A stretch of DNA of 64,000 nt, from positions 32,001 to 96,000 of the forward strand of contig CAXXXF010000007.1 in NCBI GenBank assembly GCA_963667175.2, given 5' to 3'. Made by a program: the position numbers and the translations under genes. Shown here one piece after another: positions 4,223 to 26,499 of this stretch. Positions within the stretch are counted from its first letter, which is position 1, and each line of letters begins with the position of its first letter. The notes beneath the pieces were generated by a model. The model searched no databases, had not been told where the DNA came from, and worked only from the letters and a program-made list of their open reading frames with translations. The DNA comes from Candidatus Latescibacterota bacterium (GTDB taxonomy: Bacteria > Latescibacterota > UBA2968 > GCA-2709665).

Positions 4223-5764
4223 CTACCTGGGCGTGATTGATGCAACAGACAGGCGATCCACGACCGCCTTGAGTTTCCGGTAGGCGTTGTCCGGATCGAA
4301 ACCCACCATCCGGTATCGAACGATCCCTTCTCTGTCCACAACCAGCGTTACCGGCAGGGATTTTGTCCCGGACCGTACCGCGAAGTTCTGTTCCTTGCTG
4401 TCCCAGACGGTCTCGAACGAGCCTTCGTACTTTCTCACGGCGTTCTTAACGACAGACGGGTATTCTTCTTTCGTGATGCCGGGAACGGACTCCAGAGGCG
4501 TGTGTATGGCGACCACTTTGACCCCACGACCGGAATTTTCTCGCGCAAGTCGGGCAATCACGGGCAACTCATACATGCAGGGCCCGCACCAGAACGCCCA
4601 GAAGTTCAGGACGCTCACGTTGCCTTTAATCTGATCGAGCGACAATGTACCCCCGTCCAATCGCGGCAGCTCAAATCCCGGTAGCGGCTTGCCCAGGAGG
4701 TCGTGTTTCTTCTCCGGCTCATCCCCGCGAACTGAAGCTTCGAGTTTTCGGCTGTATGCCTCATAGCCCACGTCGGACCCATGAGCGAGGTTGAAATTTC
4801 GCTGCAAGGCCATCCAGAGTTCAGGATCCCTTGGTTTGGCCCTGACGGCCTTCTCGTAGAACTCGATCGCGTCGCCGTGTCTGCCTTGCTGTTCGTAGAG
4901 CGAGGCGAGCCCCTGGTACGCCCAGACACGCCGGCCGAAATCGGAGAAGGTGCCGGAATCCGCCAGAGAATCGAGAATGTTGACGGCCTTGATATAAGCC
5001 TGCTCGGACGATTCGAATCTGCCCAGGAGTTGGAGGCTGTGGCCTCTGAGACAGTGGTATCGAAAAAGTGCCTCGTTCCGGTAGGGCTCCGGTACATCGG
5101 TGGCGTGACTGACTGCCCTGTCGGCGAAAAACAGCGCGGTTTGCGGGTATTTGCCTTCAGAAAATCCATCCAATCCGCTCAGAAAACGACCGATTTGGTC
5201 ATAGGTGCCTGAATGAGGAAGCAATGCAGCCGCGCTATCCGCGGCCGCGTGGACGTCGATGCTGTCGGATGCTGGAATCCTGGCCATCATCGAATAGAGA
5301 AAGGCCTTACCCCGACTCGCGTTGCTGGGATACCGATTCAGGAACTCATTCCACAGTTCGACGCCCACTTTTGGATTCAATGAGGTGACGGCAAAGCTTC
5401 GATTCCAGTGATCCCGTTCGTCCCTTGTCGATGTGACCGGCATGCCCGAAGCGCTGTGCAGGAAGCCGCGCCGGGTTACCTTTTTCCGATCTCGATCCAA
5501 AATCAGACTTACGGTATAACTTCCCGTCGGAAATCCGGATTTGTCCAGCACAGCCGCATGGTTGCCGGGCGCCTGATATCCGTATTGAGGCGCGGCGTGA
5601 ACGCCCACATGGATTACCTTCACCTGAACGTGCGATGATTCCGGCACGACATAATTGATGGTGATTGTACTGTCCGTGGACGCGCCGTGGATCGTCAGTG
5701 TCGCCTTCGCCGAAAGCGACCCAGGCAGGGACAACGCGAAGAGCGTGAGCCAAATGGATTTCAT
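4223..5764 (-). CDS. Exported TlpA/ResA-like thiol-disulfide oxidoreductase with TPR repeats and an N-terminal FlgD/Ig-like domain
   Basis: Signal peptide MKSIWLTLF, TPR helices, NFWAFWCGPC thioredoxin motif; GGAGG RBS upstream. Confidence 0.85.
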   Translation of the reverse strand: MKSIWLTLFALSLPGSLSAKATLTIHGASTDSTITINYVVPESSHVQVKVIHVGVHAAPQYGYQAPGNHAAVLDKSGFPTGSYTVSLILDRDRKKVTRRGFLHSASGMPVTSTRDERDHWNRSFAVTSLNPKVGVELWNEFLNRYPSNASRGKAFLYSMMARIPASDSIDVHAAADSAAALLPHSGTYDQIGRFLSGLDGFSEGKYPQTALFFADRAVSHATDVPEPYRNEALFRYHCLRGHSLQLLGRFESSEQAYIKAVNILDSLADSGTFSDFGRRVWAYQGLASLYEQQGRHGDAIEFYEKAVRAKPRDPELWMALQRNFNLAHGSDVGYEAYSRKLEASVRGDEPEKKHDLLGKPLPGFELPRLDGGTLSLDQIKGNVSVLNFWAFWCGPCMYELPVIARLARENSGRGVKVVAIHTPLESVPGITKEEYPSVVKNAVRKYEGSFETVWDSKEQNFAVRSGTKSLPVTLVVDREGIVRYRMVGFDPDNAYRKLKAVVDRLSVASITPR

Positions 5765-5823
5765 TTCGGACCTCCTTATGACTGGCCGCCGGGCCGACGA
5801 TTTCTCCGCGCAAATGTGTTTAG

Positions 5824-9304: not shown

Positions 9305-10564
9305 ATGATGGCCAATGAACGTGAAAACCGGAAAATCCGGGTCGGCGTGGTCGGCGTCGGCCGCGGGCGCTCGTTTGCGCGAGCGGCCGGGGCGACCGGG
9401 ATGGGGCTTGTCGCAATTTGCGACACATGGGAAGAGCGGCTAATTGCAGAGGGTGAGGCGCTGAACGTTCGGACCTTCGTCGACTACGACGACTTCCTGG
9501 GCTGCGACATGGACGCGGTCGTGCTGGCGAACTATTTCCACGAGCACGCCCCGTTTGCCATCAAGGCGTTCAATGCCGGAAAGCACGTGATGAGCGAGAC
9601 TGCGGCCTGCCACACCCTCGGCGAAGGGGTCGCGCTGGCCAGGGCGGTCGAAAACAGCGGCAGGATTTTCATGTTCGCCGAGAACTACCCCTACATGGTC
9701 TTCAACCAGGAGATGAAGCGGCTCTATCTGGAAGGACGCGTGGGCGAGTTCAAATACGGCGAGGGCGAATACGTCCACCCGGACCCGCCCGAAGTGAAAC
9801 TGGGCCGAAGCTGCGGGCGAAACCACTGGCGCAACTGGACCCCGGCCACCTATTACTGCACGCATTCCATCGCGCCGGTCATGTACATCACCGACACCAG
9901 GCCCACCAAAGTGAATGGATTCGTGATCCCCTTCGATTTCGCCGACCCCTCGCAGACGTTGCACGTGAGGCGGTCCGACACTGCCGCGGTGATCATCTGC
10001 CGGATGGACAACGACGCGGTGATGAAGTCCCTCCACGGCGGGCTGCGCGGTCACGGCAACTACGTCCGCATCCACGGCAACAGAGGAGTGATGGAAAACT
10101 GCCGGCACGGCGACAAACAGCGGCTGCGGGTCTGGCGCGAACCGTGGGAGAAGCGCGAAAACGATCCGGTCGAAACCGTTTACAAACCCGACTTTCCCGT
10201 CCACCACGACAAAGCAACCCGCACCGGGCACGGCGGCGGCGACTTCTTCACCTCCTGGCACTTCGCCGAGGCGATCCGCACGGGCGAGCAGCCCTATCTG
10301 GATGTGTACAGGGGGATCGACATGAGCATCGCCGGCATCCAGGCGTGGCGTTCGGCGCTGAACGATTCCGCACCTTTGGAAGTGCCCGACTTCCGCGACG
10401 AATCGGTGCGCCGGAAATACGAAGACGACGACTGGTCGCCCGACCCCGCCCGCAAAAAGGCCGGACAGCCGCCCTCCAGCATCCTGGGCGACATCGAACC
10501 GTCCGACGACGCAAAGGAACTCGCCAAAACGGTCTGGGCGTCAAAGGGATACACCGCGGACTGA
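9305..10564 (+). CDS. Gfo/Idh/MocA oxidoreductase
   Basis: GVVGVGRG, GKHVMSE, YCTHS and GHGGGD motifs. Confidence 0.9.
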   Translation: MMANERENRKIRVGVVGVGRGRSFARAAGATGMGLVAICDTWEERLIAEGEALNVRTFVDYDDFLGCDMDAVVLANYFHEHAPFAIKAFNAGKHVMSETAACHTLGEGVALARAVENSGRIFMFAENYPYMVFNQEMKRLYLEGRVGEFKYGEGEYVHPDPPEVKLGRSCGRNHWRNWTPATYYCTHSIAPVMYITDTRPTKVNGFVIPFDFADPSQTLHVRRSDTAAVIICRMDNDAVMKSLHGGLRGHGNYVRIHGNRGVMENCRHGDKQRLRVWREPWEKRENDPVETVYKPDFPVHHDKATRTGHGGGDFFTSWHFAEAIRTGEQPYLDVYRGIDMSIAGIQAWRSALNDSAPLEVPDFRDESVRRKYEDDDWSPDPARKKAGQPPSSILGDIEPSDDAKELAKTVWASKGYTAD

Positions 10565-10720: not shown

Positions 10721-11680
10721 TTAAAAAAGCCGGGGCGCTGCAGCGGGCCCGGACGTCGAATCGCAAATCAGGTTTTCAAGTGACTCTAATTTGTCAGGAA
10801 TCCACCGTGCGCCCCTCTCGACAAGACTTGCATTGCCCGATTTCCTGTTTTCCGTGCGTTTCACCCAGAGGGGAACCCAGCCGGCTTTCAGGTTTTCGAG
10901 CGCGCCGTTCCACGTTCCCCCCCGGTTCGGCGTACTGCTGACCACAATTCCAGCCGCGGACAGGCAATAGATGTACCGGTTTCGGCCCATCGCGTTGCCG
11001 ACATTGAAACCCGCTTCCGGATTGAAAGGGGTTACCAGCACCAGGTCACGTGAAACAAGAAACTTGCGGTACTTCGCAGATGTCGCCGCCCGGATCAGAC
11101 TGTCCGCCAGAACGCCGACGGCAGTGCCTCCGCTCTCCAGTGCGCTCACCATTGCACTCTGGTCGACCCCGCGGGCTCCGCCCGATACGACCGTATGTCC
11201 CTGCCGAGCGGTGGCGGCGCCCAGTCTCTCCGCGAAAGTAAGGTCCGTTCGGCCGGCATTTCGGGAGCCGACGACGGCGATGCCGCCGCGCGGAAGCAGT
11301 ATCTTGTTTCCGCAGCCGAACAGCACCGGTGGAGATTCCAGCCGAAGCCGGCGTTTCAATTGTACCGGATACTCCGGATCGGATTGAGCAACGACCCACA
11401 GACCCGCACGCTGCCATCTCTCGAGCGACAGACCGAACGCCCCACCACGATCCATCAGGCTCTCGAGTCTGGCCAGCGTAATCGAACGATCCATCCAACC
11501 CGAGAGCTCGTTCTTCAATTCACCCTTCAACAAGGCCGACGCATCCAGCTTGCGATCCTTCAGCCAGGCCGCGAGGCGGGCCCACTCTCTCGGCGAAAGT
11601 GGTTTCGCCGTCGCCCCTTCGGATCTTCCAAACGAAACCGTGAGAAGCATCACCACCTGGGTATGGGAATCCAGATTCAT
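10721..11680 (-). CDS. dprA: DprA/Smf-family DNA processing protein (accessory type)
   Basis: YP..L..PPVLFGCGN, AVVGSR, VSGGARGVD, AMGRNRYIY and GGTW motifs. Confidence 0.88.
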   Translation of the reverse strand: MNLDSHTQVVMLLTVSFGRSEGATAKPLSPREWARLAAWLKDRKLDASALLKGELKNELSGWMDRSITLARLESLMDRGGAFGLSLERWQRAGLWVVAQSDPEYPVQLKRRLRLESPPVLFGCGNKILLPRGGIAVVGSRNAGRTDLTFAERLGAATARQGHTVVSGGARGVDQSAMVSALESGGTAVGVLADSLIRAATSAKYRKFLVSRDLVLVTPFNPEAGFNVGNAMGRNRYIYCLSAAGIVVSSTPNRGGTWNGALENLKAGWVPLWVKRTENRKSGNASLVERGARWIPDKLESLENLICDSTSGPAAAPRLF

Positions 11681-11681
11681 A

Positions 11682-11782
11682 TCAAGCTGCCATTCTTGTC
11701 GTCGATAGAGCCAGCGGCCAAACGGGACCGCTGCCGGCCATTCGAAGCAACGCTGCGATGACAGTCAACGTCCATCCGGAGT
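11682..11782 (-). pseudogene. C-terminal stub of a RecQ-helicase/PRT-domain fusion gene
   Basis: VDSGWTLTVIAALLRMAGSGPVWPLAL resembles the PRT-like C-terminus of RecQ proteins encoded upstream of dprA; the stop lies 1 bp before the dprA start. Confidence 0.65.
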
Positions 11783-11841
11783 CGACGACGCAAAAAACTC
11801 GCCCTAAAGTTCTGGCGTCAAAGGGATACACGGGAGAGTGA
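11783..11841 (+). repeat. Degenerate direct copy of the 3' end of gene 9305..10564
   Basis: CGACGACGCAAA..AACTCGCC..TGG.CGTCAAAGGGATACAC..TGA matches 10504-10564. Confidence 0.85.
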
Positions 11842-11897
11842 GAGGGATCCTTCGAGATCCTGCAAGACCACAGGTACGAAAGCCGCGCAGAGCAGAA

Positions 11898-12045
11898 GAA
11901 AGGTTGGAGATGCGCCAACAGTGTGTACGATTTCTCGCTCCGACTGCTTGTTTAGTTAGGTTTATAAGGCCTAACCAAGGAAAGCAGGCGGTCTGTACCT
12001 CATTCGTATTTTATCGACGAGGCAAAAGGCGCATCTCCAATTCTT
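11898..12045 (-). ncRNA. DRT3-associated structured ncRNA with ACACAC putative template
   Basis: Perfect 13-bp closing stem (12028-12040 with 11904-11916), three internal hairpins including CGA-GAAA-UCG, unpaired ACACAC at 11921-11926; lies directly downstream of drt3b. Confidence 0.8.
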
Positions 12046-12057
12046 GCGTGTCGGGCA

Positions 12058-14040
12058 CTATGCGTATACGGTACCCAACTTCTTCTTTTCTATCATTTTC
12101 AGCAGACCGATACCCTTCCAGCGAACAAACCAATGCGTTTTCTCCATCTCGCGTGTGATTTTGCACGCGGTTTCCTTATTGATTGTGCCAATAGCGGAGT
12201 TTCTCCGGTTCAATATTGGCCAAACACCCATCAAGAGTTCACCCCGTTTTGTTGCGTCTATATGAGGGCATGCCAACAGGTCGAGAAGAAGGTGTGTGAG
12301 TTCGGAATTGAAGGTAAGTTCATCCGCGGCCACAATTCTCTCACAAGCCGACCGGAACACATCATCTATTCGGTCTCGAAGACTACAGTCATCTCCATAT
12401 ATAAACAGTTGCACAATCACATTGAAATAACCTGCGTCCCTGAGGTCGGGCTCCGCGACATCCATGAGCTCGGCTGTAAGCGTTCCATCGTCAGTGAATT
12501 CTCTGACGCATGCAAGGATATTTAACAGCTCGATTGGTACAATCCGGTTTCTCTTAATTAGATCTTTCACCGCCGGTGATCTTGCGAACTGATTGGTCCA
12601 CCTAACTATCGCTTCTCGTGCGATCTCAAAACCCTCAGGATCGTGGTCGACGAAGTGTTGTCCCGTTCGCAAGATTGCATGTGAGAGGTTCTGCGATGAT
12701 GCAACCGTTGGATGAAGCATAAAGTAATGGAAACCGACTTCCAAAAGAAACAAGACCACTTGCCTATAGTCCAACGTCGCGATAGCAACTCCGTTTGTTT
12801 TCCTCGTTTGAAGGTGTGAGTCCGCCAGTTCGGTGATCTGGCGATCCACAGTGCTAATGACGTAGCTCGCGACCGCATCATATCCCGCCTGAGCGGCCTG
12901 GCAGGCAGCCTTAACTTCCCGAGTAAAGCTTAGAAAAAGAGAACGCCGTTTCTTGATCCGACTTGGAACGATTAAGCGGGTACCACAATGATCAGTTTCT
13001 TTAAATATTTGATTTTCAAGGTTTTGTATACTTACATCCACCCTGTCAATCACGATAGATTTGCGCGTGTAGAAGGGTCTCTCGAGATTCTCAGTCTTTC
13101 CTTCGTTAAGGTAGAGCTTATATTCAGATAGGGCATTCCGAATTTCATCCTGAATTATAGATGTTGATTCGCGGGTGTTGGCGAAAACATAGTAGTTGTC
13201 TACGTATCGCCGACAGTCAAAGTGGGTCTTTTCAGTAAGTTTAAACTGGTTCAGTCGGTCACGGAGGTTCTGATCGACCTTGGCAAGTATAATCTCGGCA
13301 AAGAGGCGACTCGCTTCCGGTCCTATGCAAATTCCGCTGGTCTCGCCGTAGTTAAGGGATCGCATTACAAGGTCGAATTGATTCCCAAATGATCGCGCTC
13401 TTGGGCTTTTCTTTGCGGACTCTTTATCCGTTACAGCCCATGTAATCGAGTGGGTATATATACTGTCGAAACATTTGCCTATGTCTAATATAAGCATATG
13501 CTTATACTTTTTTTCAAGTTGGATGTAATCTTCCGACGAAAAGAAGCGATACAGTCGGTTATATCGTCGGTAAGTGAAGTAAGTTTCAGGGTTTCTCTCG
13601 ATATTATCGACAGCGGACGCGTCAATTGAAGCATTCTTTCGGTTGTTTTCACCCCCAATAAACGATCTGCCTATACCTACAGGCTTGCGTATCGAAAATG
13701 AGCTCCGTCCGCCAAATTCGCAAATTAGCTGATCGTACTTTTCGTAAAATCTAGCGATTTTTGCCTGCCCGTGCGGATGGATCAGGCTCAGTTTCCTGAC
13801 ACCCTCTTCATCGTGCGCGATCGCATAAATGAACGGGATTGTATAGTTCCGCTTGCAAAGGACCAGAGCACCTATCAGCTCTTTCAATTTATCGGTTTTG
13901 GCATCGCATTCCGACAGGTTCTTGTAGAAACCATCATTGCTGAAAATTATCGGCACCTCAATTGGCGCGGTGTCCGTCAATACCGTTCGCCAGACGTCTG
14001 AACGGTTAAGTCGTACACGTCTCTTGGATGGGCTAGGCAT
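12058..14040 (-). CDS. drt3b: Antiviral reverse transcriptase Drt3b (DRT type 3)
   Basis: R.VLTDT.P.EVPIIFSNDGFY N-terminus, LDIGKCFDSIYTHSI.WA, GICIGPEASRLFAEIIL, RYVDN; 660 aa; overlaps the end of drt3a. Confidence 0.9.
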   Translation of the reverse strand: MPSPSKRRVRLNRSDVWRTVLTDTAPIEVPIIFSNDGFYKNLSECDAKTDKLKELIGALVLCKRNYTIPFIYAIAHDEEGVRKLSLIHPHGQAKIARFYEKYDQLICEFGGRSSFSIRKPVGIGRSFIGGENNRKNASIDASAVDNIERNPETYFTYRRYNRLYRFFSSEDYIQLEKKYKHMLILDIGKCFDSIYTHSITWAVTDKESAKKSPRARSFGNQFDLVMRSLNYGETSGICIGPEASRLFAEIILAKVDQNLRDRLNQFKLTEKTHFDCRRYVDNYYVFANTRESTSIIQDEIRNALSEYKLYLNEGKTENLERPFYTRKSIVIDRVDVSIQNLENQIFKETDHCGTRLIVPSRIKKRRSLFLSFTREVKAACQAAQAGYDAVASYVISTVDRQITELADSHLQTRKTNGVAIATLDYRQVVLFLLEVGFHYFMLHPTVASSQNLSHAILRTGQHFVDHDPEGFEIAREAIVRWTNQFARSPAVKDLIKRNRIVPIELLNILACVREFTDDGTLTAELMDVAEPDLRDAGYFNVIVQLFIYGDDCSLRDRIDDVFRSACERIVAADELTFNSELTHLLLDLLACPHIDATKRGELLMGVWPILNRRNSAIGTINKETACKITREMEKTHWFVRWKGIGLLKMIEKKKLGTVYA

Positions 14041-15265
14041 ATTTCCAACATTTGATTAGCTGATTGAGTCTGTCCGGTGGAAAGTGGAAGTGGATTCTAT
14101 TGACGAACCCACCAGTAAATGTCAGTCTGAGCAACTCCTTCCTTTGAGATTTCGAAAGTACCTGCGCCAACGGACCACAGATTTTCCCTGTATTGGAGAG
14201 AAGGACCTTTCTCAAGAACTGATCCAGCTCCGTTAAAGCCGATGAAGGCCAGCTTATCAGTCCGTATGTATGGTACACACCCGCAAATCGGACGCGATCA
14301 TTTTTCGAGTCGTGAAAACTATAGTTGCAAGTCAGTAGCTTAAGACGATCGTGTAAGTCCTTGAAATCTTGGTCCCTAATGAATTGGAGCAGAGATCGTA
14401 TCACTCGGGTTTTTCGTTTGTTGATCTTTGATCGAGCGATGTCGATTCTAACCGTTCGGTCGTATGGAATTGAGTTTCCAATCTCGTGGACTTCAAAAGA
14501 GAAACCCAAATATTCGAACCTGTGTTCGATCGTTGGATTTGGGCTACGTTTGTTGCGAAATTCAATCAATCTGGTCTTCCGCGCGTTTAATCGTAGACCC
14601 ATAGGCAGAAGGTTTGCTATTTCCTTACGGAAAGACTTAAAATCACCGTCCGGTTGTGCGACTACAATGATGTCGTCGACGTACCTACAATACAACCGTA
14701 TCAATGATTTAGTTCTAACTTGACCGTCAAAGTCTTGCATATAGAATTCGCTCAACGCAGCGCTTATTGATAAACCGCGAGGCATACCACTGACACAATT
14801 GACAGCACACTGATCGATAAATCTGCCGAGGACAAGCCTCGTGCCGGGCGCTGTGAGCAAACGACATCTCAACAGTTCCTTCAAGTTATCTTGATCGATT
14901 GTTTCGTAAAAGCTCTGGATGTCGATTTTCGCTACGCAATACGGAAGCCCCTCTTCAAGAAGTAGCCGAAGGCGTCGAACAATCTCCACCCGGTTGCTCT
15001 GTTTCGTGTTCGCTATCGTTCGGAGATTCTCGGCCGCTTTCCGCAACACAAGCTCAGACGGAAGATGAGTCAGACGGTAGACTAACTTTCCTGATACGGA
15101 GTTGGTCTGCAATCGAAGATCCGTGAACCCGTTTCTACCAATTTCAGCGGCCTTGTTGATTATGGACGTACGCTTTATCGGATCTGTAAGTGACGGGTAT
15201 CGGCGGAAGTCGCTTGTGCGTATGTGGCGTTCAAGCGAACTCGCACTGAATGTAGGATCATACAT
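14033..15265 (-). CDS. drt3a: Antiviral reverse transcriptase Drt3a (DRT type 3)
   Basis: MYDPTFS start, DIQSFYE, GMPRGLSISAALSE, RYVDDI, FEYLGF; 410 aa. Confidence 0.9.
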   Translation of the reverse strand: MYDPTFSASSLERHIRTSDFRRYPSLTDPIKRTSIINKAAEIGRNGFTDLRLQTNSVSGKLVYRLTHLPSELVLRKAAENLRTIANTKQSNRVEIVRRLRLLLEEGLPYCVAKIDIQSFYETIDQDNLKELLRCRLLTAPGTRLVLGRFIDQCAVNCVSGMPRGLSISAALSEFYMQDFDGQVRTKSLIRLYCRYVDDIIVVAQPDGDFKSFRKEIANLLPMGLRLNARKTRLIEFRNKRSPNPTIEHRFEYLGFSFEVHEIGNSIPYDRTVRIDIARSKINKRKTRVIRSLLQFIRDQDFKDLHDRLKLLTCNYSFHDSKNDRVRFAGVYHTYGLISWPSSALTELDQFLRKVLLSNTGKICGPLAQVLSKSQRKELLRLTFTGGFVNRIHFHFPPDRLNQLIKCWKYA

Positions 15266-15546
15266 GGTTTAATTCTGGCGGACCGGACCCAAAAGCCGTA
15301 ATGTGCGAGATACCTTAAGCACTGCGCGGAATCCCAGCGTAATGATGTGTTGTGATCCAATAAAATATCTGAGCCTGTTAGTCCCCAGTACAGAGACACA
15401 TAACGGCGGAACTAAGGAAATCTATCTAATGTTGTTATCCGGCAAGGCGAACACCATTTCAACGTCACGCGCAATTACGAAATCAGAGACCCGTAGACGA
15501 GCCGACCAAATCATCGACAGACAGTGTGCGTGCAGACTATAGAGGG

Positions 15547-16464
15547 TCAATTAGCTTCGTTGCCAGCTATGCTGGCCAAGGTCGCCGCGGATACATCACA
15601 GCCTTTAGCCAAGTACCCAATTCCGGCCTCAGACAACCGCGATGTCAACTCGTCGGAAAACCAGTTCGCCAAGGTTATTGCGAATTTGCACGGGATGTCA
15701 AACTCGCAGTCGTAGTAACGCGAAAGAAATGGAACGTCATTCACAGGAACATTCGGTACTTCATCTGTGAGTTCGGCATAGGCCAGAGTCTGAATCATGT
15801 GAAGTGTGAGTCGGGTAAACCATGCCATTCTATACGCACCGACGGATAGGCTCTGTGAGCCATCGTGCATCACCAAGTTTACCAAATCATCAGGTTCTGG
15901 GAGGTTGTCATTGCCGTGAAAAACATGGTCTCTAAACCCTGCGATCAGCAGGCCGGCCTTACCAAGCAGAGTGACCTCGCTCCCCTTCAATAGCCTCCGG
16001 CGGATAGCTGTCTTGTCCGTAGCAAGGGACAGACTGATCTGGTACACCGAAGTCACCAAATCGACGTGTGCGGGTGGAACCGCATTGAGCAATTCAATTC
16101 GGGCTTTATTACCCTTGGTTGTCAGTTGGCGGCCAGACAGAGACCGATGTCGGATCAACTCGTATGCATTCCAAACAAAATGAAAACGCACGAGTTCCAG
16201 CATGTAATCATCCAAAAGGTCACTTTGCCGATTATCATAAGCTGATGCACTGGAGCAATAGGACCAAGCCTTGTAGAGGTCTGCGGCAGATGCGTCTGTA
16301 ACGACACGTGAAACAGATGCGGGTGGGAACAAGGAATTTGCCGCCGAATACCACACAGACGATTCCCCCCGCATCACGTCATGGCCTTGGAACAGCTCAA
16401 GAAGGAAGCGCATCCGGGCGGACACTGTAGCCAGTGAAACGCGATGTGCAATTTGAATCTCCAC
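15547..16464 (-). CDS. Hypothetical protein with HEPN-like RxxxxH motif
   Basis: F.FVWNAYE helix followed by RDHVFHG; located in the defence island. Confidence 0.6.
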   Translation of the reverse strand: MEIQIAHRVSLATVSARMRFLLELFQGHDVMRGESSVWYSAANSLFPPASVSRVVTDASAADLYKAWSYCSSASAYDNRQSDLLDDYMLELVRFHFVWNAYELIRHRSLSGRQLTTKGNKARIELLNAVPPAHVDLVTSVYQISLSLATDKTAIRRRLLKGSEVTLLGKAGLLIAGFRDHVFHGNDNLPEPDDLVNLVMHDGSQSLSVGAYRMAWFTRLTLHMIQTLAYAELTDEVPNVPVNDVPFLSRYYDCEFDIPCKFAITLANWFSDELTSRLSEAGIGYLAKGCDVSAATLASIAGNEAN

Positions 16465-16708
16465 TACTCAAACCATGCCGTGATATTGATTGTAAAGCTT
16501 CCGCGAGGGAATAGGCAATAACAGGATCCTTTCCGTGCCCTCTGTAAAAATGCTGATCGCAGACGTCGGTCGGGCTCGATCGGTGAAGAATGTTGTAAGT
16601 CTTTGAGGATGGCTTACTGTCTTGTCTTTTTACATGTCGCCCGGTATCGTAGTCAATGCGATCTTCGAGGGGCTAACTGAGATGCGGATCCGTGGCACTG
16701 TCCGCCGC

Positions 16709-17143
16709 TCACCCCACACTCACCGCCCCCAACAACACCGCCGGATTCTCGATTTCCTCGTTGAATGCAGCGTTTGCGAGTTTCTGGTCGAATGTCGCCA
16801 AACTGGCCTCGCGCCGGGTCGCCGTCTCGAGATAGCTCGCGTCATATACGGTCAGGTTGTGTCTTTGCGCGAGGTCCAGGACCGCGGCCTCGTTGCGTTC
16901 CGTGTCCTCGCACAATGAAAACCCGTCGGTCAGTTGAATCAGACATGCATCGAACTGCCGTTGGTTTATCCGGTTGAAGCGCTTAGCGTTGAGCAAGACG
17001 TTCCGAATCTCATACCAGAAGATGATCGGCGTGATGCTCTCAGTGGTATCGAGGTGTTCGAGAATCGTGCGCGCAAAGTGACTATAAACTTCGTCAGGCA
17101 GTAGTTGGGCCCCCATCACCGACGCGTCGATTACGGTGGCCAT
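16709..17143 (-). CDS. vapC: VapC-family PIN-domain toxin
   Basis: VIDAS, YEIRNVL, LTVYDASYL and LATFDQKL motifs; ATG overlaps the res stop (TGATG). Confidence 0.9.
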   Translation of the reverse strand: MATVIDASVMGAQLLPDEVYSHFARTILEHLDTTESITPIIFWYEIRNVLLNAKRFNRINQRQFDACLIQLTDGFSLCEDTERNEAAVLDLAQRHNLTVYDASYLETATRREASLATFDQKLANAAFNEEIENPAVLLGAVSVG

Positions 17144-19986
17144 CAGCCCCGGCCCTCCTCTTTCCATTGGCGGATTTCGTCTTGCGTGACTGGCCTCATC
17201 TCGCGTTGGCGTTCACTTGATTCGTTAAGCGCTTTTTTCCACAACAACGCGCCGAAAGTCCGGTGCTCGTCAGAGAACTCTGACTGGTTTATCCTCGTGT
17301 ATTTCCAGGCCTTTCCAGTGGCTTCGCTTACCCGCTTGCACCAATCCCTTGCAGCGTCGTCTTTTCGTTCAGTCCCTGGCCACTCACGGCCCTTGGTTTC
17401 GACAATCCAACTGACTTCGCCGCCCCCGACTTTCTGGACCACCACCCAATCGGGGAAATAGAAGCCGATTGCCCCACTCTTCTTCAGGTAATCGATCCTA
17501 AACGTGGATGCGGAACTCCCCTGTTCTGTGGTACCGAGCGCAGCGAAACGTGTGACGTCTCCAGCGCGGTCCAGGAAAACTGCGAATTCGCGCTCAAAGT
17601 GGTTGTACGTAGCCACGAGATTGAAGATAGTCTTCCTTGCCTCCATTAGTGGCAGATTTCTTTTCCAACCAAAGCGTTTCGTCATAGATAGTCGGAAATC
17701 CTCTTTTTCAAATGTTACCGCACGCCGCTCAATGGATAGTTCCCCGATCTTGCCCGCGATGTACGTGGCGATACTTTCTTGTAACTCCAATCTCGCTAGA
17801 TGGGAGCGGACATTATTATCCGTCAGTTCGATCTTGCGTCCAAAACATCGGTTTGAAACATAATTCTGTACGATAGGGTAAATTTCCGCGAAACAGTTGG
17901 TAAGGTTAGCGCGGTCAGCGGTCTTGTTGGCGATACTCGCCAAGAGTTCACGGGCTGAATTTGGTTCTACAGCAATGTCCGCCTGATGTACCTCCGTCTC
18001 GGTAGTAGCAAATTCCATTCTCAGGCGTATCCGGTATGCTTCGGATAGTTCTTGCCTCTGGTGAATTGCCTCAAGTAAATGAACTTTCAGCGCGGACACC
18101 TTCCGAAAATCATGGGTTAGAGTTGGCTTTGTGATCGGTATGGCGATGTCGTAATTCAGCCGTTCAAGCACGGGTTCGATGTAGACTGGCAACGGCGGGT
18201 TCTTTTTGGTGGTTACGACTCCTACCCCCTCCACTTCGAGTTGATGACGCAAGACGTTGAGCAGGTTGCGCGTGCCAAGCACTTCGAGTGTCTGGGTCTG
18301 GTCGGGGCTTATTTGCGTCATTAGCCGAAGTCCGCGACCGATGGCCTGTTCGGGAAGGATCTCAGCCGTCGCGGTGAATGGGCGTAAACCGAGAACTACC
18401 GTCACGTTCCGCACGTTCCATCCCTCGCGCAACATCATCACACTGACGATTACCTTAATTCTGCTCTCGGGCTTATCGATATCCCGCGCCGCTTTACGTG
18501 CTTTCTCAATGTCTCCTCTTCGAATTTCCCCAGTGTTGTCAGTGTGGATAACGAGCACTTCGGATTCCTTGAATCCGAATTCCTCCGTTTTGCACAGGTA
18601 CTCTCCCATTACATCAGCATGGGCGTTTTTCTCAGCCATAACAAAAAGCACTGGCCTCATGTTGAGTTTCCTATAAATCCGCCAGTGTTCCTTCCAACGC
18701 TGGACGGCGGCTCTTAACCAATATCCGTATTTCTCCACGACGTTTTTCTTATTGACGCTGTTGGGGTCTTCTGCAGGTTGATCTGGATCATCTTCTTTGC
18801 TGACGATGATGGGCGCCTTGACGATCCTATCCTCCACGGCCTGCGCCAATGGATAGTCCACGACTGTCCATGGGAAGTACATCCCGTTCTGGTCCTTGGG
18901 TGTGGCAGAAAAGTCGAGCCACATGCTGAGGCCCCGTGGCAACTTATCGTTAATGGATAGAAGCGATTGGCTCCAGGTTAGATCTTCCCTATGGACATGG
19001 TGCGCTTCGTCATTTAGTACGACGAGGTCCGGAAGTGACTTTACGCGATCCAACATTGAACGATGACCGGATGCCGCGAGGTCTTGTACGGGTTTCTTGC
19101 CCAGCATGAATTCAGCGGCGTTTTGCGGAGTCGGCCTCTTGTAGCGAGATTCGTAGAGTTGATGAATATTGGTGAGAAACAGATTCCCGGAAGGGTCGGG
19201 CTCAGCGGCTTCACCACGCAGGATCACCTTTTGAGAGAAAGTGCCATACCATTCCGGAGGTATTAACGGCAGTTCGTGGAATACCTGGTTGTTTGCAAAG
19301 TCCTTCTCCAACCGCTGGTAGACAATGACGTTAGGCGCCACGATGAGGAAGTTTGTGGAGAGCTCCGATCCTGGAACTAACTGCTTATGGAAGCGCGACC
19401 AAACAACTGCCATCGCCATCGCCCACGTCTTGCCGGAACCCGTGGCCATCTTGAAGGCAAATCGCCGGAGATTATCGGGCGGTAGGTCCTGTTCGCCGAC
19501 GCCATTCAGTTCCGGAACATATCGGCGAATCCGTCTTATTCCATTCGGTGTTGTTCTAAACTCGAGGTTCATCGATAGGAGGTCTTTTCGCTGAATCGAG
19601 CCTTGGGCCTTAATGAGAGCTTGAACATCGAGCTGACCCGCTATTTCCACCAACCAGACCAGTGTTTCTATAGCTTCCCTTTGGCAGAAGTAGTACCGAA
19701 ATGGAACGTCAAATCCGTCGACAATGTGGTCCTCGTCGAACCAAAATTCGAACAGGCGTCGCGTAACATCCGATGCCCCCTCATATCCCCCATTGCGCCA
19801 CGCATCAACTGCCTCGCGAACCTTCGGCACCAAAAGAAGATTACTTGGACGCCTTCCCGAACAATCCTCTCGCCATCCGGTTGGCACTTCGTCATCTCTG
19901 ACGAGGTAGGATGTTGGCCTTTCCCATGGACGCCGGTGTCGGATTTCGGGTAAATCGTCGTCGTATCTGATAACGGCTTTGGCCAT
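17143..19986 (-). CDS. res: Type III restriction enzyme Res subunit (SF2 helicase plus PD-(D/E)xK) with C-terminal antitoxin-like extension
   Basis: MATGSGKT, NDEAHH, SATP, MLREGWNV, EQAIGRGLR and YFPDW..IVETKG motifs. Confidence 0.88.
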   Translation of the reverse strand: MAKAVIRYDDDLPEIRHRRPWERPTSYLVRDDEVPTGWREDCSGRRPSNLLLVPKVREAVDAWRNGGYEGASDVTRRLFEFWFDEDHIVDGFDVPFRYYFCQREAIETLVWLVEIAGQLDVQALIKAQGSIQRKDLLSMNLEFRTTPNGIRRIRRYVPELNGVGEQDLPPDNLRRFAFKMATGSGKTWAMAMAVVWSRFHKQLVPGSELSTNFLIVAPNVIVYQRLEKDFANNQVFHELPLIPPEWYGTFSQKVILRGEAAEPDPSGNLFLTNIHQLYESRYKRPTPQNAAEFMLGKKPVQDLAASGHRSMLDRVKSLPDLVVLNDEAHHVHREDLTWSQSLLSINDKLPRGLSMWLDFSATPKDQNGMYFPWTVVDYPLAQAVEDRIVKAPIIVSKEDDPDQPAEDPNSVNKKNVVEKYGYWLRAAVQRWKEHWRIYRKLNMRPVLFVMAEKNAHADVMGEYLCKTEEFGFKESEVLVIHTDNTGEIRRGDIEKARKAARDIDKPESRIKVIVSVMMLREGWNVRNVTVVLGLRPFTATAEILPEQAIGRGLRLMTQISPDQTQTLEVLGTRNLLNVLRHQLEVEGVGVVTTKKNPPLPVYIEPVLERLNYDIAIPITKPTLTHDFRKVSALKVHLLEAIHQRQELSEAYRIRLRMEFATTETEVHQADIAVEPNSARELLASIANKTADRANLTNCFAEIYPIVQNYVSNRCFGRKIELTDNNVRSHLARLELQESIATYIAGKIGELSIERRAVTFEKEDFRLSMTKRFGWKRNLPLMEARKTIFNLVATYNHFEREFAVFLDRAGDVTRFAALGTTEQGSSASTFRIDYLKKSGAIGFYFPDWVVVQKVGGGEVSWIVETKGREWPGTERKDDAARDWCKRVSEATGKAWKYTRINQSEFSDEHRTFGALLWKKALNESSERQREMRPVTQDEIRQWKEEGRG

Positions 19987-19988
19987 TC

Positions 19989-22049
19989 CTATTCCACCTC
20001 AATATCCATCGCTTGGGAAGTGTCGTTACCGAATATATCTATCACTTTGACTAAGATCCTATACTTACCTGGCGATTCATATTTGTGAGAATCGCTTGTC
20101 AGCGCGAGCGTTCGATCATTACGGGTCCGATAAGCCACCCATCCCTGCATAAAGGAGTCGTTACGGAAGTCCCAGTCCACCGCCCAATAGTCGATGTAGT
20201 CGGACCACTTCGTAACCTTTTCCCGCACTTCGTCAGGGATGAGTTCCGAATTCGGAATAACAAAATCGTCCAGCTTCACCCCAATTGTCTGCTTTGTCGG
20301 CTTAACGATGACTGCATTTAGATATGCGAGCTCGAAGAAGCGCACATCGTTCCTGTCCACAGCCTGCTGTTCCATCACTTCCCGAGGAATCTGCAGGAGA
20401 ATAAGCTTTACGCCTCTTGCTCTAGCAACGTTGTGCATCAACCCTCCGCTACGCACGCTGTTCTGCCCCGCAAGACCCATCTCCCACTCCCAGCCGAGTA
20501 CATGAAGTTCCCCCTGCCTTAATCGGATGCACTCGTCAAGTCCGTGTTGTATCTCGTCGATGGTAACGGGCGCCTCGACGGCGCCTATATGCACTAGGGC
20601 CTTTCCTTTCTTCCCGTGCAGATGTACCGATCCCGAAATCGGCTGAGCGCCGTAAAGCTTAAGGATGAAAGCCAAATATTCATACAATGCACGCTCACTT
20701 ATCACCCTATTCGACTTTTCGCCAAAGGTCATACCTTGCCAGTACTGGCGTTCGTATTTACCCAGATTCAGAACCTCAAAAGGCTGGCAATTCTGTATAC
20801 CCTGTAGCCGCTTTCGTGTGACATGCATAGCCCAGCGACCGAGATCACATCCGATCCATCGTCGGCCGAGTTTTTCGGCGATGGCTAGTGTTGTACCGGA
20901 ACCGCAAAAAAAGTCTGCGACAATGTCGTTAGGTCGACTGATCCATTCAACAATCCGAGTTAACAGCTGCTCGTGTTTTTGAGTCGCGTAGTCCTTGAGA
21001 TTCTCATATGTCTTTATGTCATCCCAAACTGTGTCTCCGACTTTATCGTTACGAGGTGGAAACCAATTTTCTACAGTTCCAGTTGAAGATTTCCGGATAA
21101 ATTCCAGCGTGCGACCCGTATCCCGCCAATATTCGACCAATGACCGATCGCGCCTATCTCTTAGGAACTGGTTGTAGTTTTCTACTGCGCGTAGCGCTCT
21201 CTTTTTTTGCCATTTCCACTGTCCATGGGTCGGTGTCTCCGAAAGCAATTTATACCTCATACTAGGCCGGTTAGCACCGCTCCAGAATCGATGCCAATAT
21301 CCGTCGGGTGTCGGGCTTTCGTAAGGAACCAACAGGTTTGGGACCCTTGTACTAGATTGTGCAGAGTACCAAAGCAACACATCATGACCTTGTGGTAACG
21401 ACGAAATGACATTGAACTGTCTTTGTAGATTTTTCGTTATGGGTCTGTGAAGCACTATTTCATTTCTGAAATTGTCGGCTCCGAAAATTTCATCTAACAT
21501 CAGCCTTAGGTATGGGCTTACATTTGGCGCCACGTGAACAAACAGGTGGCTCGCCGGTGACATTAAGGATTTTATCAGTTTCAAACGCTCGTTCATCATC
21601 GCCATGTAGCTGATTAGTCCCTGTCCCCATGTATCGCGGTAAGCTTTATCCTCGACAACTGATGCCGCCTTCTCAACTCTGAGATCTTCGTCACCAACCT
21701 TTGTCGAGAATGAGAAATCCGCCCCAGTTGCAAACGGCGGATCGATGTAAATCAGATCGACCTTTCCCGAAAACCTCGCAAGTAGCGAACCCATCACCAG
21801 CAGGTTATCGCCCCAGATGAGCTTGTTTTTCCAGCCATCTTCAAACGTGTCCCCCTCCTTACCGTCGTAAATGTCAAAAAGGGAACTCTGAACCCCTTCC
21901 TTTTTTGCTTCGCGTGTGGCGCGGCTTTCGTTGACAGTCTCGATCACCTGGAAGGGTAGATTGACTCGCGGAACTTCCCTTAGAGTTCCATCTTCGTTGT
22001 ACTTGCCGGGCCAGACTAACTCAGTCCTCGCAATGTCATTCTTTGCCAT
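19989..22049 (-). CDS. mod: Type III R-M Mod subunit (N6-adenine DNA methyltransferase)
   Basis: ELVWPGK, NKLIWGDNL, IYIDPPF (motif IV) preceding DFFCGSGTT (motif I); GAGG RBS. Confidence 0.9.
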   Translation of the reverse strand: MAKNDIARTELVWPGKYNEDGTLREVPRVNLPFQVIETVNESRATREAKKEGVQSSLFDIYDGKEGDTFEDGWKNKLIWGDNLLVMGSLLARFSGKVDLIYIDPPFATGADFSFSTKVGDEDLRVEKAASVVEDKAYRDTWGQGLISYMAMMNERLKLIKSLMSPASHLFVHVAPNVSPYLRLMLDEIFGADNFRNEIVLHRPITKNLQRQFNVISSLPQGHDVLLWYSAQSSTRVPNLLVPYESPTPDGYWHRFWSGANRPSMRYKLLSETPTHGQWKWQKKRALRAVENYNQFLRDRRDRSLVEYWRDTGRTLEFIRKSSTGTVENWFPPRNDKVGDTVWDDIKTYENLKDYATQKHEQLLTRIVEWISRPNDIVADFFCGSGTTLAIAEKLGRRWIGCDLGRWAMHVTRKRLQGIQNCQPFEVLNLGKYERQYWQGMTFGEKSNRVISERALYEYLAFILKLYGAQPISGSVHLHGKKGKALVHIGAVEAPVTIDEIQHGLDECIRLRQGELHVLGWEWEMGLAGQNSVRSGGLMHNVARARGVKLILLQIPREVMEQQAVDRNDVRFFELAYLNAVIVKPTKQTIGVKLDDFVIPNSELIPDEVREKVTKWSDYIDYWAVDWDFRNDSFMQGWVAYRTRNDRTLALTSDSHKYESPGKYRILVKVIDIFGNDTSQAMDIEVE

Positions 22050-22114
22050 AATGGTGTTCCTCTTATGCACCAAAGAGAAGAGACCGATTGTTTGGGAATC
22101 TATTCCGTCCCGTA

Positions 22115-24979
22115 TCAATTGGCCACTTCTGATCTTTCGATTACGCCTTCCGAATGGCACAGCATCCGCAGGTCGCACTCCTGGCAGATTTTCGCCTCGG
22201 GTGGCGTTTCGACCGCGAACTGTCCTGTCTGAATTCGATGAACCGTCTCGTCGAAGTGCCGTCCCGCCTTTTCCACGGATTCCGGTCGGTACGGCAGGAC
22301 CATCAACGCTTGTTCCTTCTGTTCCTCAGCGGTCCAATAAAGGAGCAGACGGTCAACGTGTTTTCCGTGTCGCTGCTCCAGAATGTGCGCATACGTACAG
22401 AGTTGCCGTTTGTACGCCGAGATAAGCTCGGTGGAGTTCGTCGGACGTGGGGACGTCTTGAAATCAAGCAGTTCCAGCTTTCCGTCGCCGCCGAGCAACA
22501 GGTCCACTTTTCCGGTCAGGATGTATCCGTCCTTCTCGAGCGAGACGTCCACCTCAGTCTCAACGATCCGGTTCATTGCCTCCTGATTCTGTTGAAAATA
22601 GTTGATTACCTGGGTGAATGCCAGTTCTTTTGCTTTTTCGCCGATCGGACGCCTGCCGGAATGGTGCAGAAACCGGAACGTCCGCTCAAACAACACCTGT
22701 ATGTGTTCCTCGTTCAGCGTATCAAGCTGCCCGTCGAGCGCGAATCTGTGGATGTCCTCAATTGTCTGATGGACGAGCAGTCCGAAGTACATCTCGGCGG
22801 AACGTGAGGGGGTAAAGTCGTATTCGCGGAAGAATTGGTATTGACGAGGGCAGGTTTCGTAAACCTTCAGGTCGCCGGTGAAGCTGTAGGTCTTTTTCAC
22901 CGGCATCCGCTCCTGAGGTTCGAAGGACTGAGCGGCCAGCGTTTCCCTCCGGACGTACGGCCATTGCGGGAGCCCCTGCCAGATTGACGCGAAGTAACCC
23001 TTCGGCTGATCGTGGGCTGTAAGTACGAGCAACTTCTGCGGCCTCGAAAATGCCACGTAATGCAATCGCATCCGATCGAAGAGGGTGATCCGTTCCTCGG
23101 GCTCGAAGGGCGGGCGGTGATAGAATTGCCCGAGATGGCGGTCGATTTGCTTTGGGCTGCTAAGAGATACGGTAAGCGACCCAACCACGACCACGGGAAA
23201 CTCCAGCCCCTTCGCCTGATGGATGGTCATGACCTGAACGTGGCCCCTTGGGAACGGCCGGTCCGGATCCTCGTATTCGTTGATGCCGCCGGCGTATAGG
23301 AACCGTAAGAAGCTGCTGAAAAAGTGAAAGCGGATATACTCGCGATTCCTGTGCGTAATCACCGAGTAGTGGTAGTAGGTTTGAAAGACATTCAGCAGCT
23401 CAGAAAAAATGGCCAGGTTGCGGGCGATGTTTTCGTCGCGAACGGCACTCCTGAACGGTTCAAACGCGAGCAATCGGTAGAAATAATCAGCGGGACGCAG
23501 GTCGAGCGTCTCTCCCTCCTGAAGTGCGGCCATTTCATCTGTCCATCGTCTGAGGGCTGCGGACAGCGGGTGCGGAGGAGCGCAGTTTTCACTGAGCTCG
23601 ACAATGGCCTCGTCCACATACGTAGCGAGTTGCTTTACCACACCGGCGATTTCCCCACGCTGATCCCCATACCAACCGAACAGGACGGCATAACAGGCGA
23701 CAAGATCGCGAATCACCGGAATTTCGAAAAAGGCGCGTGCCCTTGGACAGAACGCCGGGATTCCCTTGCGCTCGAGCGCATCCGTATAGGGTCCACTGTG
23801 TTCTACGCGTACGCTATGTAGCAATAAGGCAACTTGACTGTAGTCTGAAATAATGCCGTTCACTTTCAGGAAATCGACCATGTCAGCAAATCGGTCGGCT
23901 TCATCAGTACTGTCGCTGCCCCATATGCTGATAACGGAAGGGTAATCCGGGTGCGTCCCTTCAGCGTCTGCGACGATCGTCTTGTCGTGACGGTACGATC
24001 CCCCATCCCGGTTGGACCAATCGCTTGAGGCCATCCAGCGGTCGTAGCGTTCCACAATCGCACTGTGGGACCGGTAATTGGTTGTCAGCCGTGCGATCCG
24101 GCAATCCCCGACGTTGTCCGCGAACTCCAGGATGTTGCGTACGGTCGCGCCCCTGAAGCGATAGATGCTCTGGTCCTCGTCTCCAACGACGCACAGATTT
24201 TTCTCGGTTCCCGCCAACTTGAGGAGAAGCTGTTCCTGGATGTAATTCGTGTCCTGGTATTCGTCTACCAGAAGATACCGCACGTCCGGAGCCACAGCTT
24301 CCGCTTGTGGGTCTTGCTCTAACAGCCCGTAAACATGCCTTTGCAGGTGGGCGAAATCGACCCGGTTGCCCGCCGATAGGGCCCGCACATAACGTTGATA
24401 GGCGGAACCGATCGCCGCGACGAACGAGTCGTCGGATGCTGCAAGTCGGCAAGGATCGACCAGTTCTTCCGTGATCTTGTCAAAAAAGCCGCGTGCGCCC
24501 TGAATCGCCGTCCAGCGCGTCGTCCAACGCGTGAGGAACTTGCCGTCTTCGGAAGGACCGATAATCTCGTCAAAGTGTTCAAATATGAACAGCAGTTGTG
24601 TCAACTCGTCCAGCGTTTCGTAGTTGTGTCCGAGCGCCGTGCGGTGCCGGTGTTGGGAAAGCACGCGGTCGCAGAATCCGTGGATGGTGGAAACTGTGAG
24701 CTCAGAAAGGTCTACGTCGAATCGAACCGTGCGAGCGGCTGCCGCCAGCCGGTCCCGCATTTCAAAGGCGGCCTTTTCGGTGAAGGTGCACAACACGATC
24801 TCCTTCGGCTCAGCCTTTCCCAACATCAATAGATTCAATGCCCGCAGGACGATGCTGAACGTCTTGCCGGAGCCCGGTCCCGCAATCACGAGCAACGGGC
24901 CGTCCAGATGGCCAACGACTTCCCGCTGACTGTGCGTGAGTTCCGGATAGTGCCTCAGTATGGCCGGCGTAATATTCAC
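22115..24979 (-). CDS. UvrD/Rep SF1 helicase fused to a C-terminal PD-(D/E)xK nuclease with Cys cluster
   Basis: AGPGSGKT, VDEYQD, GDEDQSIYRFRGA, TIHQAKGLEF; C-terminal CPRQY..GKVDLL..DFKT..CQECDLRMLC. Confidence 0.9.
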   Translation of the reverse strand: MNITPAILRHYPELTHSQREVVGHLDGPLLVIAGPGSGKTFSIVLRALNLLMLGKAEPKEIVLCTFTEKAAFEMRDRLAAAARTVRFDVDLSELTVSTIHGFCDRVLSQHRHRTALGHNYETLDELTQLLFIFEHFDEIIGPSEDGKFLTRWTTRWTAIQGARGFFDKITEELVDPCRLAASDDSFVAAIGSAYQRYVRALSAGNRVDFAHLQRHVYGLLEQDPQAEAVAPDVRYLLVDEYQDTNYIQEQLLLKLAGTEKNLCVVGDEDQSIYRFRGATVRNILEFADNVGDCRIARLTTNYRSHSAIVERYDRWMASSDWSNRDGGSYRHDKTIVADAEGTHPDYPSVISIWGSDSTDEADRFADMVDFLKVNGIISDYSQVALLLHSVRVEHSGPYTDALERKGIPAFCPRARAFFEIPVIRDLVACYAVLFGWYGDQRGEIAGVVKQLATYVDEAIVELSENCAPPHPLSAALRRWTDEMAALQEGETLDLRPADYFYRLLAFEPFRSAVRDENIARNLAIFSELLNVFQTYYHYSVITHRNREYIRFHFFSSFLRFLYAGGINEYEDPDRPFPRGHVQVMTIHQAKGLEFPVVVVGSLTVSLSSPKQIDRHLGQFYHRPPFEPEERITLFDRMRLHYVAFSRPQKLLVLTAHDQPKGYFASIWQGLPQWPYVRRETLAAQSFEPQERMPVKKTYSFTGDLKVYETCPRQYQFFREYDFTPSRSAEMYFGLLVHQTIEDIHRFALDGQLDTLNEEHIQVLFERTFRFLHHSGRRPIGEKAKELAFTQVINYFQQNQEAMNRIVETEVDVSLEKDGYILTGKVDLLLGGDGKLELLDFKTSPRPTNSTELISAYKRQLCTYAHILEQRHGKHVDRLLLYWTAEEQKEQALMVLPYRPESVEKAGRHFDETVHRIQTGQFAVETPPEAKICQECDLRMLCHSEGVIERSEVAN

Positions 24980-25665: not shown

Positions 25666-25777
25666 ATTCCTGTGTGTTGTATCGGTTCAGTTGTTCACGC
25701 CGGGCGAACTCTCAGAGAATTTGTAGACGTCACGGGATCTTCGTCGGTGGCGCCAACTATAAAATACAACAGGAGTT

Positions 25778-26473: not shown

Positions 26474-26499
26474 TTGAACAACCCTCACTTTACGGAATT

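Follow-up and report, generated by a model that had tools for sequence, protein, structure and literature searches.

A DRT3 locus with two reverse transcriptases and a conserved, covarying RNA bearing ACACAC in a Latescibacterota genome

The DNA examined here, a stretch of 64,000 nucleotides (nt) from contig CAXXXF010000007.1 of a Candidatus Latescibacterota bacterium (the window), carries a complete three-part DRT3 locus on its minus strand, in the order drt3a (14033-15265), drt3b (12058-14040) and a structured non-coding RNA (ncRNA; 11904-12040). Region 11904-15265 (minus strand) is very probably a functional DRT3 that works as published in E. coli. An earlier note on this DNA, prepared from its letters, had claimed a complete DRT3 locus with two reverse transcriptases (RTs) followed by a structured RNA; the sequence bears out that observation and supports its interpretation, and the locus is a further member of the already described DRT3. 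Gene identity, the catalytic, gate and priming residues, the fold of the RNA, its covariation and its invariant template have all been established for the window locus itself (Table 1).

The published account of DRT3 comes from E. coli (Wang et al. 2026, bioRxiv, PMC13174585). According to the parts of that preprint drawn on here, the ncRNA is encoded downstream of DRT3b and contains a highly conserved ACACAC in a loop. DRT3a is RNA-templated and copies ACACAC into poly(dTdG), and mutation of the ACACAC loop leads to loss of both poly(dTdG) and defense. DRT3b is protein-primed and protein-templated, with roles for E22, R241 and Y666 in making poly(dCdA). The products form a duplex, with RecBCD as the restraint and Gam as the trigger, and the same parts of the preprint describe read-through into a 'stem-loop 4' next to the template, as well as a covariance model covering 41 homologous systems (PMC13174585). 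A review, in the section that concerns us, credits Deng et al. 2026 with the same chemistry and with a 6:6:6 Drt3a:Drt3b:ncRNA complex (PMC13314766). The proposal of the earlier note, that ACACAC is a reiterative template from which Drt3a would make poly(GT) and that Drt3b would add poly(AC), agrees with what these portions of the two sources report for E. coli DRT3 (PMC13174585; PMC13314766), and the window carries the defining sequence features. What goes beyond that proposal is that Drt3b needs no nucleic-acid template, its own residues selecting the nucleotides (PMC13174585, same parts).

Both RT genes are full length and stop-free, and they overlap by 8 nt on the same strand. The drt3a product matches the PADLOC Drt3a model PDLC02175 from end to end (E = 1.1e-130; residues 1-409, profile positions 1-416 of 417), as does the drt3b product with the Drt3b model PDLC02176 (E = 8.9e-187; residues 6-659, profile positions 2-651 of 651). 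Pfam RVT_1 is found in both Drt3a (E = 2.8e-14) and Drt3b. The nearest solved chain to Drt3a is PDB 9z6y_A, 'Drt3a reverse transcriptase protein' (E = 1e-62, residues 1-409), and those nearest to Drt3b are 9z6y_H (E = 1e-97) and 26cz_A, a SUMO-fused RNA-directed DNA polymerase (E = 1.2e-76); the chains of 9z6y and 9z6z carry the deposited names 'Drt3a/Drt3b reverse transcriptase protein'. The homolog collection also holds a 100%-identical Drt3b form of 640 amino acids (aa), covering 97% of the query, whose start apparently lies about 20 codons later (window 13981-14040, minus strand). We regard the ATG at 14040 as the better start, because D15 and R18 do not vary among homologs and the alignment with the solved Drt3b chain starts at residue 5.

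To carry E. coli DRT3b numbering over to the window protein we aligned it to PDB 26cz, which we took for the DRT3b that Wang et al. studied in E. coli, with the tag offset set at 108; we infer this offset from E22 and Y666 landing on E and Y. With this correspondence the gate (E28), switch (R245) and priming (Y659) residues of the published enzyme are all retained. E28, R82, D186, F191, R245, Y279, D281 and Y659 are shared by all 33 sequences in an alignment of Drt3b homologs, where the position of I187 is I in 20 and V in 13.

The RNA begins close behind drt3b, its closing stem starting 17 nt past the stop codon (12058-12060). When the minus strand from 11880 to 12060 was folded, the minimum free energy (MFE) was -71.5 kcal/mol, compared with -45.2 +/- 4.1 kcal/mol for 200 shuffles (z = -6.37), none of which folded as well. 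In this fold, a closing stem P1 with two 13-nt arms, 100% complementary and 111 nt apart, surrounds three stem-loops and an unpaired ACACAC, the predicted template. The perfect 13-bp stem, the long CUGCUU..UGGUUAGG/CCUAACUA..AAGCAG arm and the unpaired ACACAC at 11921-11926 that the earlier note had picked out were all recovered, the last in the letters as well as in the MFE fold. Two of its smaller hairpins needed amendment: what it gave as CCUC/GAGG exists as a hairpin, with a stem that is really 9-10 bp, and the CGA-GAAA-UCG hairpin beside ACACAC has a fourth pair, G11938-U11927, so that the U before ACACAC, taken there to be unpaired, is predicted to be paired. Its edge for the RNA at 11898 was 6 nt too generous, since the closing stem ends at 11904. 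Stem-loop 3 is preceded by a conserved junction, A11992-C11991.

Taken alone, neither the hexamer nor the stem would be striking. ACACAC occurs 16 times in the window, where 23 +/- 5 occurrences are expected, and is thus not enriched. An inverted-repeat scan of the window (seed 12, length at least 13, arms at most 160 nt apart) gave 8 pairs, of which five (I4-I8) are 100% complementary; among these, I8 at 35362/35479 is also perfect, with 13-nt arms and a spacing of about 100 nt like that of P1 (I7). As ACACAC plus a 13-bp repeat is unremarkable by chance, the weight of the case lies in the z-score of the fold and, above all, in conservation and covariation among homologs.

A Drt3b protein search returned 1066 homologs at E <= 1e-20. 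The window protein alone, used as query, found no relatives in genome contigs, and an alignment of 33 Drt3b homologs (A1) succeeded, providing 80 loci from species genomes. In 77 of the 80, a Drt3a homolog is encoded upstream in the same orientation; one more has it with overlapping coordinates, and the other two are limited by the contig end. In the interval from 30 nt before to 450 nt beyond the end of the drt3b match, ACACAC is present in 78 of the 80 loci, compared with about 5 of 78 expected from its window frequency of about one per 8 kb of single strand; the two loci without it have just 81 and 2 nt of contig beyond drt3b. When single-sequence MFE folds were screened for the architecture seen in the window, 36 of 78 loci had it, as did 17 of 780 shuffled controls.

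The earlier note had proposed building a covariance model from regions downstream of drt3b. Since MAFFT alignment of 16 such regions left ACACAC shifted by 2 nt from one subgroup to another, we seeded the model from 7 sequences and realigned the remainder with Infernal. From the window and these six relatives, RNAalifold arrived at the same fold of four helices, in which 21 of the 40 pairs were compensatory. The resulting model, R1, was enlarged twice to give R2 and R3, and each of the three has a single match in the window, at 11901-12043 (minus strand), with 124.1, 106.5 and 97.9 bits, respectively. One reverse-strand match of R1 (locus L006, minus strand, E = 0.004) was spurious and was excluded by a repeat search of 21 sources at E <= 0.0005. 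R3 was searched against both strands of 85 sources (677 kb), with matches in the 80 loci taken at E <= 0.01, and it matches 34 sequences: the window, 31 of the 80 loci, the same-genus genome G048 and the annotated drt3a/drt3b locus L093 of E. coli, where the match (E = 3.4e-5) comes right after drt3b. All 34 matches are full length, on the drt3b strand and begin no more than a few tens of nucleotides from the drt3b end, and by their record titles the matched loci span several phyla. Across 151 genomes of the window's phylum, R3 found only the host genome (G000) and G048, once each and directly after drt3b, and these two are also the sole genomes of the 151 with a full-length Drt3b match.

Alignment A7 has 33 distinct rows. 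Standard pairs fill 91.9% of its 1155 pair cells, and double changes occur at 37 of the 40 pairs. Helix 1 (P1) has double changes in 13 of 13 pairs, with 94.8% of cells paired, and helix 2 (stem-loop 2) in 9 of 9, with 81.9% paired. Helices 3 to 5, which make up stem-loop 3, have 100%, 87.8% and 93.1% of cells paired, with double changes in 13 of 14 pairs, and helix 6 (stem-loop 4) is paired in 100% of cells. None of 500 shuffles reached any of five pairing measures, and sliding the 3' partners by 1-3 columns reduced pairing to 32.8-43.5%. All six bases of ACACAC are invariant in the 33 distinct rows. Other invariant positions are few, namely G11938, C11937 and G11928 at the base of stem-loop 4 and A11992 (33 of 33 rows each), with C11991 identical in the 32 rows that hold a letter there. 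The stem and ACACAC, on whose conservation in homologous loci the earlier note had staked its reading, are both conserved across these rows.

Thus the predicted ACACAC template is universal in our sample, and the scaffold described here holds for a large subgroup. Among the distant loci, L061, L063, L072, L078, L080, L082 and L083 have ACACAC about 40-50 nt past the drt3b match and no R3 match; in these seven, the ncRNA is either much shorter or overlaps the 3' end of drt3b. The window locus itself had no blastn match in E. coli genomes, and the E. coli DRT3 loci were found by way of a Ewingella locus (L038). A search of 11000-16500 against Rfam 15 with cmscan gave 0 matches at E <= 1, which means that the DRT3 ncRNA is absent from the 4227 families of that library.

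Beyond P1, the sequence at 11801-11903 is also similar in the same-genus relative. By blastn, window 11801-12132 is 72.7% identical to the same-genus loci L002/L007, against 64.6% for the coding part, and pairwise alignment of the tail alone gives 80% column identity; since just two related sequences are compared, this conservation is weak evidence.

If the window locus follows the E. coli precedent, the operon transcript would carry the ncRNA immediately 3' of drt3b, and this RNA would fold with P1 closed around the three stem-loops. Drt3a would bind it and copy the exposed 5'-ACACAC-3' repeatedly into poly(dTdG), in the manner of telomerase with template resetting, and stem-loop 4 would form the 5' boundary of the template. 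Drt3b would prime on its C-terminal Y659 and make the complementary poly(dCdA) without a nucleic-acid template, the glutamate gate E28 and the arginine switch R245 presumably enforcing the alternation of A and C. The two strands would then anneal to a poly(GT/AC) duplex, whose build-up during infection would lead to abortive infection. Transcription of the ncRNA, the DNA products, complex formation and defense are ascribed to the window locus on the strength of the literature.

Several observations weigh against such a direct transfer. No RNA sequencing run containing the stretch was found, and promoter and terminator scans gave counts not above those of shuffles. R3 matched 31 of the 80 loci but not the other 49, and it also missed the second E. 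coli DRT3 type, L092, with filters off; there, the best hit at the expected place has 6.1 bits (E = 3.3), and ACACAC lies 235 nt past drt3b. The fold described is therefore valid for part of the family only. Motif C of the window Drt3b reads YVDN (N282), whereas both solved Drt3b chains have YVDD; this is the sole departure of the locus from the tested DRT3 sequence features, and given YVDN the activity of Drt3b is an assumption here. The covariation counts lean towards the model structure, to which the alignment was fitted; the slid controls agree with them in direction, as does the structure-free RNAalifold result. Finally, RecC was not found in the host, so regulation through RecBCD and Gam, as published, may not apply here in the same form.

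This last point leads to a more novel reading, which we consider possible though clearly less likely than operation as in E. coli: the DRT3 chemistry could be under different control, in which another nuclease in place of RecBCD and another phage inhibitor in place of Gam restrain the duplex and trigger the system, and the YVDN site may have altered metal or nucleotide handling. The suggestion arises because the host has no detectable RecC and only a divergent AddA-like helicase-nuclease, and because its Drt3b belongs to the large YVDN subgroup. Neither the RecC model (PF04257) nor two AddB models matched the host's own genome, which is 95% complete, so the absence of RecC and AddB is not proven; RecB and AddA models gave sub-threshold matches only. 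A divergent AddA/RecB-like ORF (open reading frame) of 1149 aa adjoins a 929-aa ORF with a weak TIGR03623 match (L110, G000:C15:430500-440500).

It is improbable that the locus is instead a decaying or inactive copy in which YVDN makes Drt3b catalytically dead, so that no duplex DNA is formed. The second Asp of motif C is indeed replaced by Asn, and the adjoining psyrT has been cut down to a 33-codon remnant, so the island does hold decayed genes, but both RT ORFs are full length, free of stops and give whole-profile matches, and the remaining functional residues are all invariant. Given that the fourth residue of motif C is N in 22 and D in 11 of the 33 sampled Drt3b homologs, the two interleaved among close relatives, YVDN looks like a maintained natural variant, which argues against decay. 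Moreover, Mg2+ in E. coli DRT3b is coordinated, in the structural description of Wang et al. used here, by D182, I183 and D278, the last being the first Asp of the pair (PMC13174585). These ligands correspond to D186, I187 and D281, and the second Asp of motif C may therefore be dispensable in the window Drt3b.

More improbable still is the view that the structured region is merely the 3' untranslated region (UTR) or terminator of the drt3ab mRNA, or a leader of psyrA, with ACACAC incidental. A U-rich run (CCUUUCUUCU) does follow the 3' strand of P1, a simple scan lists 11903-11919 (minus strand) as terminator-like, and ACACAC as such is not enriched; however, the terminator-like count in the scan is 6 against 3.7 +/- 2.1 expected, not above shuffles, and a terminator has no need of three internal helices that covary across phyla or of a fixed, invariant and unpaired hexamer. 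The same-genus relative lacks psyrA, yet has kept the RNA, and in E. coli DRT3, as far as the relevant parts of the preprint go, mutation of the loop abolishes both products and defense (PMC13174585). Least probable of all is that 11682-11918 (minus strand) codes for a protein and is not where an RNA gene ends: a TTG-start ORF of 78 aa spans it, with residues 43-76 matching the PsyrT and DpdF profiles over their last 33 positions, but this match (positions 654-686 of 689) marks a C-terminal remnant, lies at 11691-11789 outside the RNA core, and leaves an overlap with the RNA that is limited to the P1 3' strand by way of a weak TTG start.

Compared with E. coli DRT3, the window locus shares the gene order drt3a-drt3b-ncRNA, both RT families and the gate, switch and priming residues of Drt3b, and in the RNA the closing stem, the internal stem-loops, the small hairpin abutting the template and the invariant single-stranded ACACAC. 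The differences are that the window proteins have strongly diverged from the solved chains (alignments judged by eye, with no identity computed), that Drt3b has YVDN in place of YVDD, that RecC was not found in the host and that the host belongs to another, small phylum. The setting differs as well, the window locus lying in a chromosomal defense island and the E. coli loci beside phage-satellite-type genes. Both E. coli loci (L092 and L093) adjoin genes for a polarity suppression protein (psu) and an ogr/delta-like protein and an integrase beside ssrA; in L093 the ncRNA match ends at 4572, overlapping by 2 nt the opposite-strand integrase coding sequence (locus positions 4571-5767).

DRT10, DRT9 and telomerase resemble DRT3 in that a short template in a structured RNA is copied reiteratively, with a template-adjacent helix as boundary, according to the passages of two sources used here (PMC12632851, PMC13174585). 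DRT10 and DRT9 are class 2 UG reverse transcriptases that make ncRNA-templated tandem-repeat or homopolymer DNA. They have a single RT and other repeat units and effectors (SLATT in DRT10), whereas DRT3 adds a second, protein-templated polymerase for the complementary strand; the likeness to DRT10, DRT9 and telomerase is thus a mechanistic resemblance and not membership. AbiK, DRT4 and UG15, class 1 UG RTs, share with Drt3b the RT core and protein-primed, template-independent synthesis, and the matches of Drt3b to PDB 7r08 and 7z0z (E from 2e-19 to 3e-10) are confined to the RT core. Unlike Drt3b, these enzymes make random or homopolymeric DNA and act alone, without a partner RT or ncRNA.

As to mechanism, the window locus adds nothing new. 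Its value is modest and lies in a YVDN variant of Drt3b, a host apparently without RecBCD and a low-GC DRT3 cassette in a chromosomal defense island. Annotation based on ORFs gives two RT genes here and misses the RNA behind the function of the system, which has now been placed to the base. The covariance models reach DRT3 loci in several phyla and so provide support for the published model from independent sequences, and the ncRNA alignment could seed an Rfam family, none existing in Rfam 15.

Table 1. Features of the DRT3 locus and its surroundings in the window. Positions are window coordinates; for the Drt3b residues, the E. coli equivalent is given first.
Feature	Position	Strand	Description or basis
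drt3a	14033-15265	-	class 2 (UG3) reverse transcriptase, 410 aa; motif C Y195-V-D-D198
drt3b	12058-14040	-	class 1 (UG8) protein-primed reverse transcriptase, 660 aa; motif C Y279-V-D281-N282
DRT3 ncRNA core	11904-12040	-	137 nt, first to last base of closing stem P1; fold and covariance models
P1, 5' strand (TTGGAGATGCGCC, = UUGGAGAUGCGCC)	12028-12040	-	inverted-repeat pair I7
Stem-loop 2 (GCCUCGUCG ... CGAAUGAGG hairpin)	11996-12024	-	fold and alignment
Stem-loop 3, long three-part arm (CC/GG base, CUGC/GCAG, UGGUUAGG/CCUAACUA)	11940-11991	-	fold and alignment
Stem-loop 4, GCGA-GAAA-UCGU hairpin abutting 5' side of template	11927-11938	-	fold and alignment
ACACAC, single-stranded predicted template for Drt3a poly(dTdG)	11921-11926	-	unpaired in MFE fold
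Linker UGUU, 4 nt, between ACACAC and P1 3' strand	11917-11920	-	fold
P1, 3' strand (GGCGCATCTCCAA, = GGCGCAUCUCCAA)	11904-11916	-	inverted-repeat pair I7; fold
3' tail conserved with same-genus relative	11801-11903	-	blastn and pairwise alignment
E. coli E22, window E28	Drt3b		alignment to 26cz
E. coli R71, window R82	Drt3b		alignment to 26cz
E. coli D182/I183, window D186/I187	Drt3b		alignment to 26cz
E. coli F187, window F191	Drt3b		alignment to 26cz
E. coli R241, window R245	Drt3b		alignment to 26cz
E. coli Y276-V-D278, window Y279-V-D281	Drt3b		alignment to 26cz
E. coli Y666, window Y659	Drt3b		alignment to 26cz
psyrA, full length	10721-11680	-	PsyrA E = 6.6e-128
psyrT remnant, 33 codons	11691-11789	-	PsyrT profile positions 654-686 of 689
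305-aa ORF between PIN gene and drt3a	15547-16464	-	no Pfam or PADLOC match
PIN protein	16709-17167		defense island
Type III methyltransferase and restriction enzyme	17143-22178		defense island
UvrD-PD-(D/E)XK helicase-nuclease	22115-24979		also matches PADLOC RT-associated helicase model
RadC-like gene	24976-25665		defense island
Pycsar: PycC cyclase (25778-26488) and cyclic nucleotide monophosphate (cNMP)-binding TIR effector (26500-27408)	25778-27408		defense island

The defense island (16709-27408) lies on the drt3a, or high-coordinate, side of the DRT3 locus. The GC content of the DRT3 genes is 44-48%, below the 58-63% of the 7-12 kb segment toward lower coordinates. The 305-aa ORF between the PIN gene and drt3a falls into unnamed hypothetical clusters only in the ESM Atlas (score 0.94) and is absent upstream of the same-genus drt3a. 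The DRT3 of the same-genus relative has about 65% DNA identity to that of the window and different neighbors, which is typical of cassette shuffling.

Next to the RNA, the PsyrTA pair is incomplete, no N-terminal part of psyrT being found nearby, and this broken pair abuts the DRT3 cassette. A direct repeat of about 50 nt (10504-10554 and 11783-11831, both minus strand; 86% identical, with an exact shared 18-mer) brackets the psyrT remnant and psyrA. It has only these two copies in the genome, one of which overlaps the 3' end of a GFO/IDH/MocA oxidoreductase ORF (9305-10564, plus strand), and in the same-genus relative there is just one copy, immediately behind the tail of its DRT3 RNA. The repeat may mark a cassette junction or represent an att-like site. 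Farther out, two 199-aa ORFs (27525-28124 and 30893-31492, both minus strand) show weak matches to IS200-like Y1 transposases, and the same perfect 14-bp palindrome occurs in both (27766-27794 and 31134-31162), indicating that the element has been duplicated.

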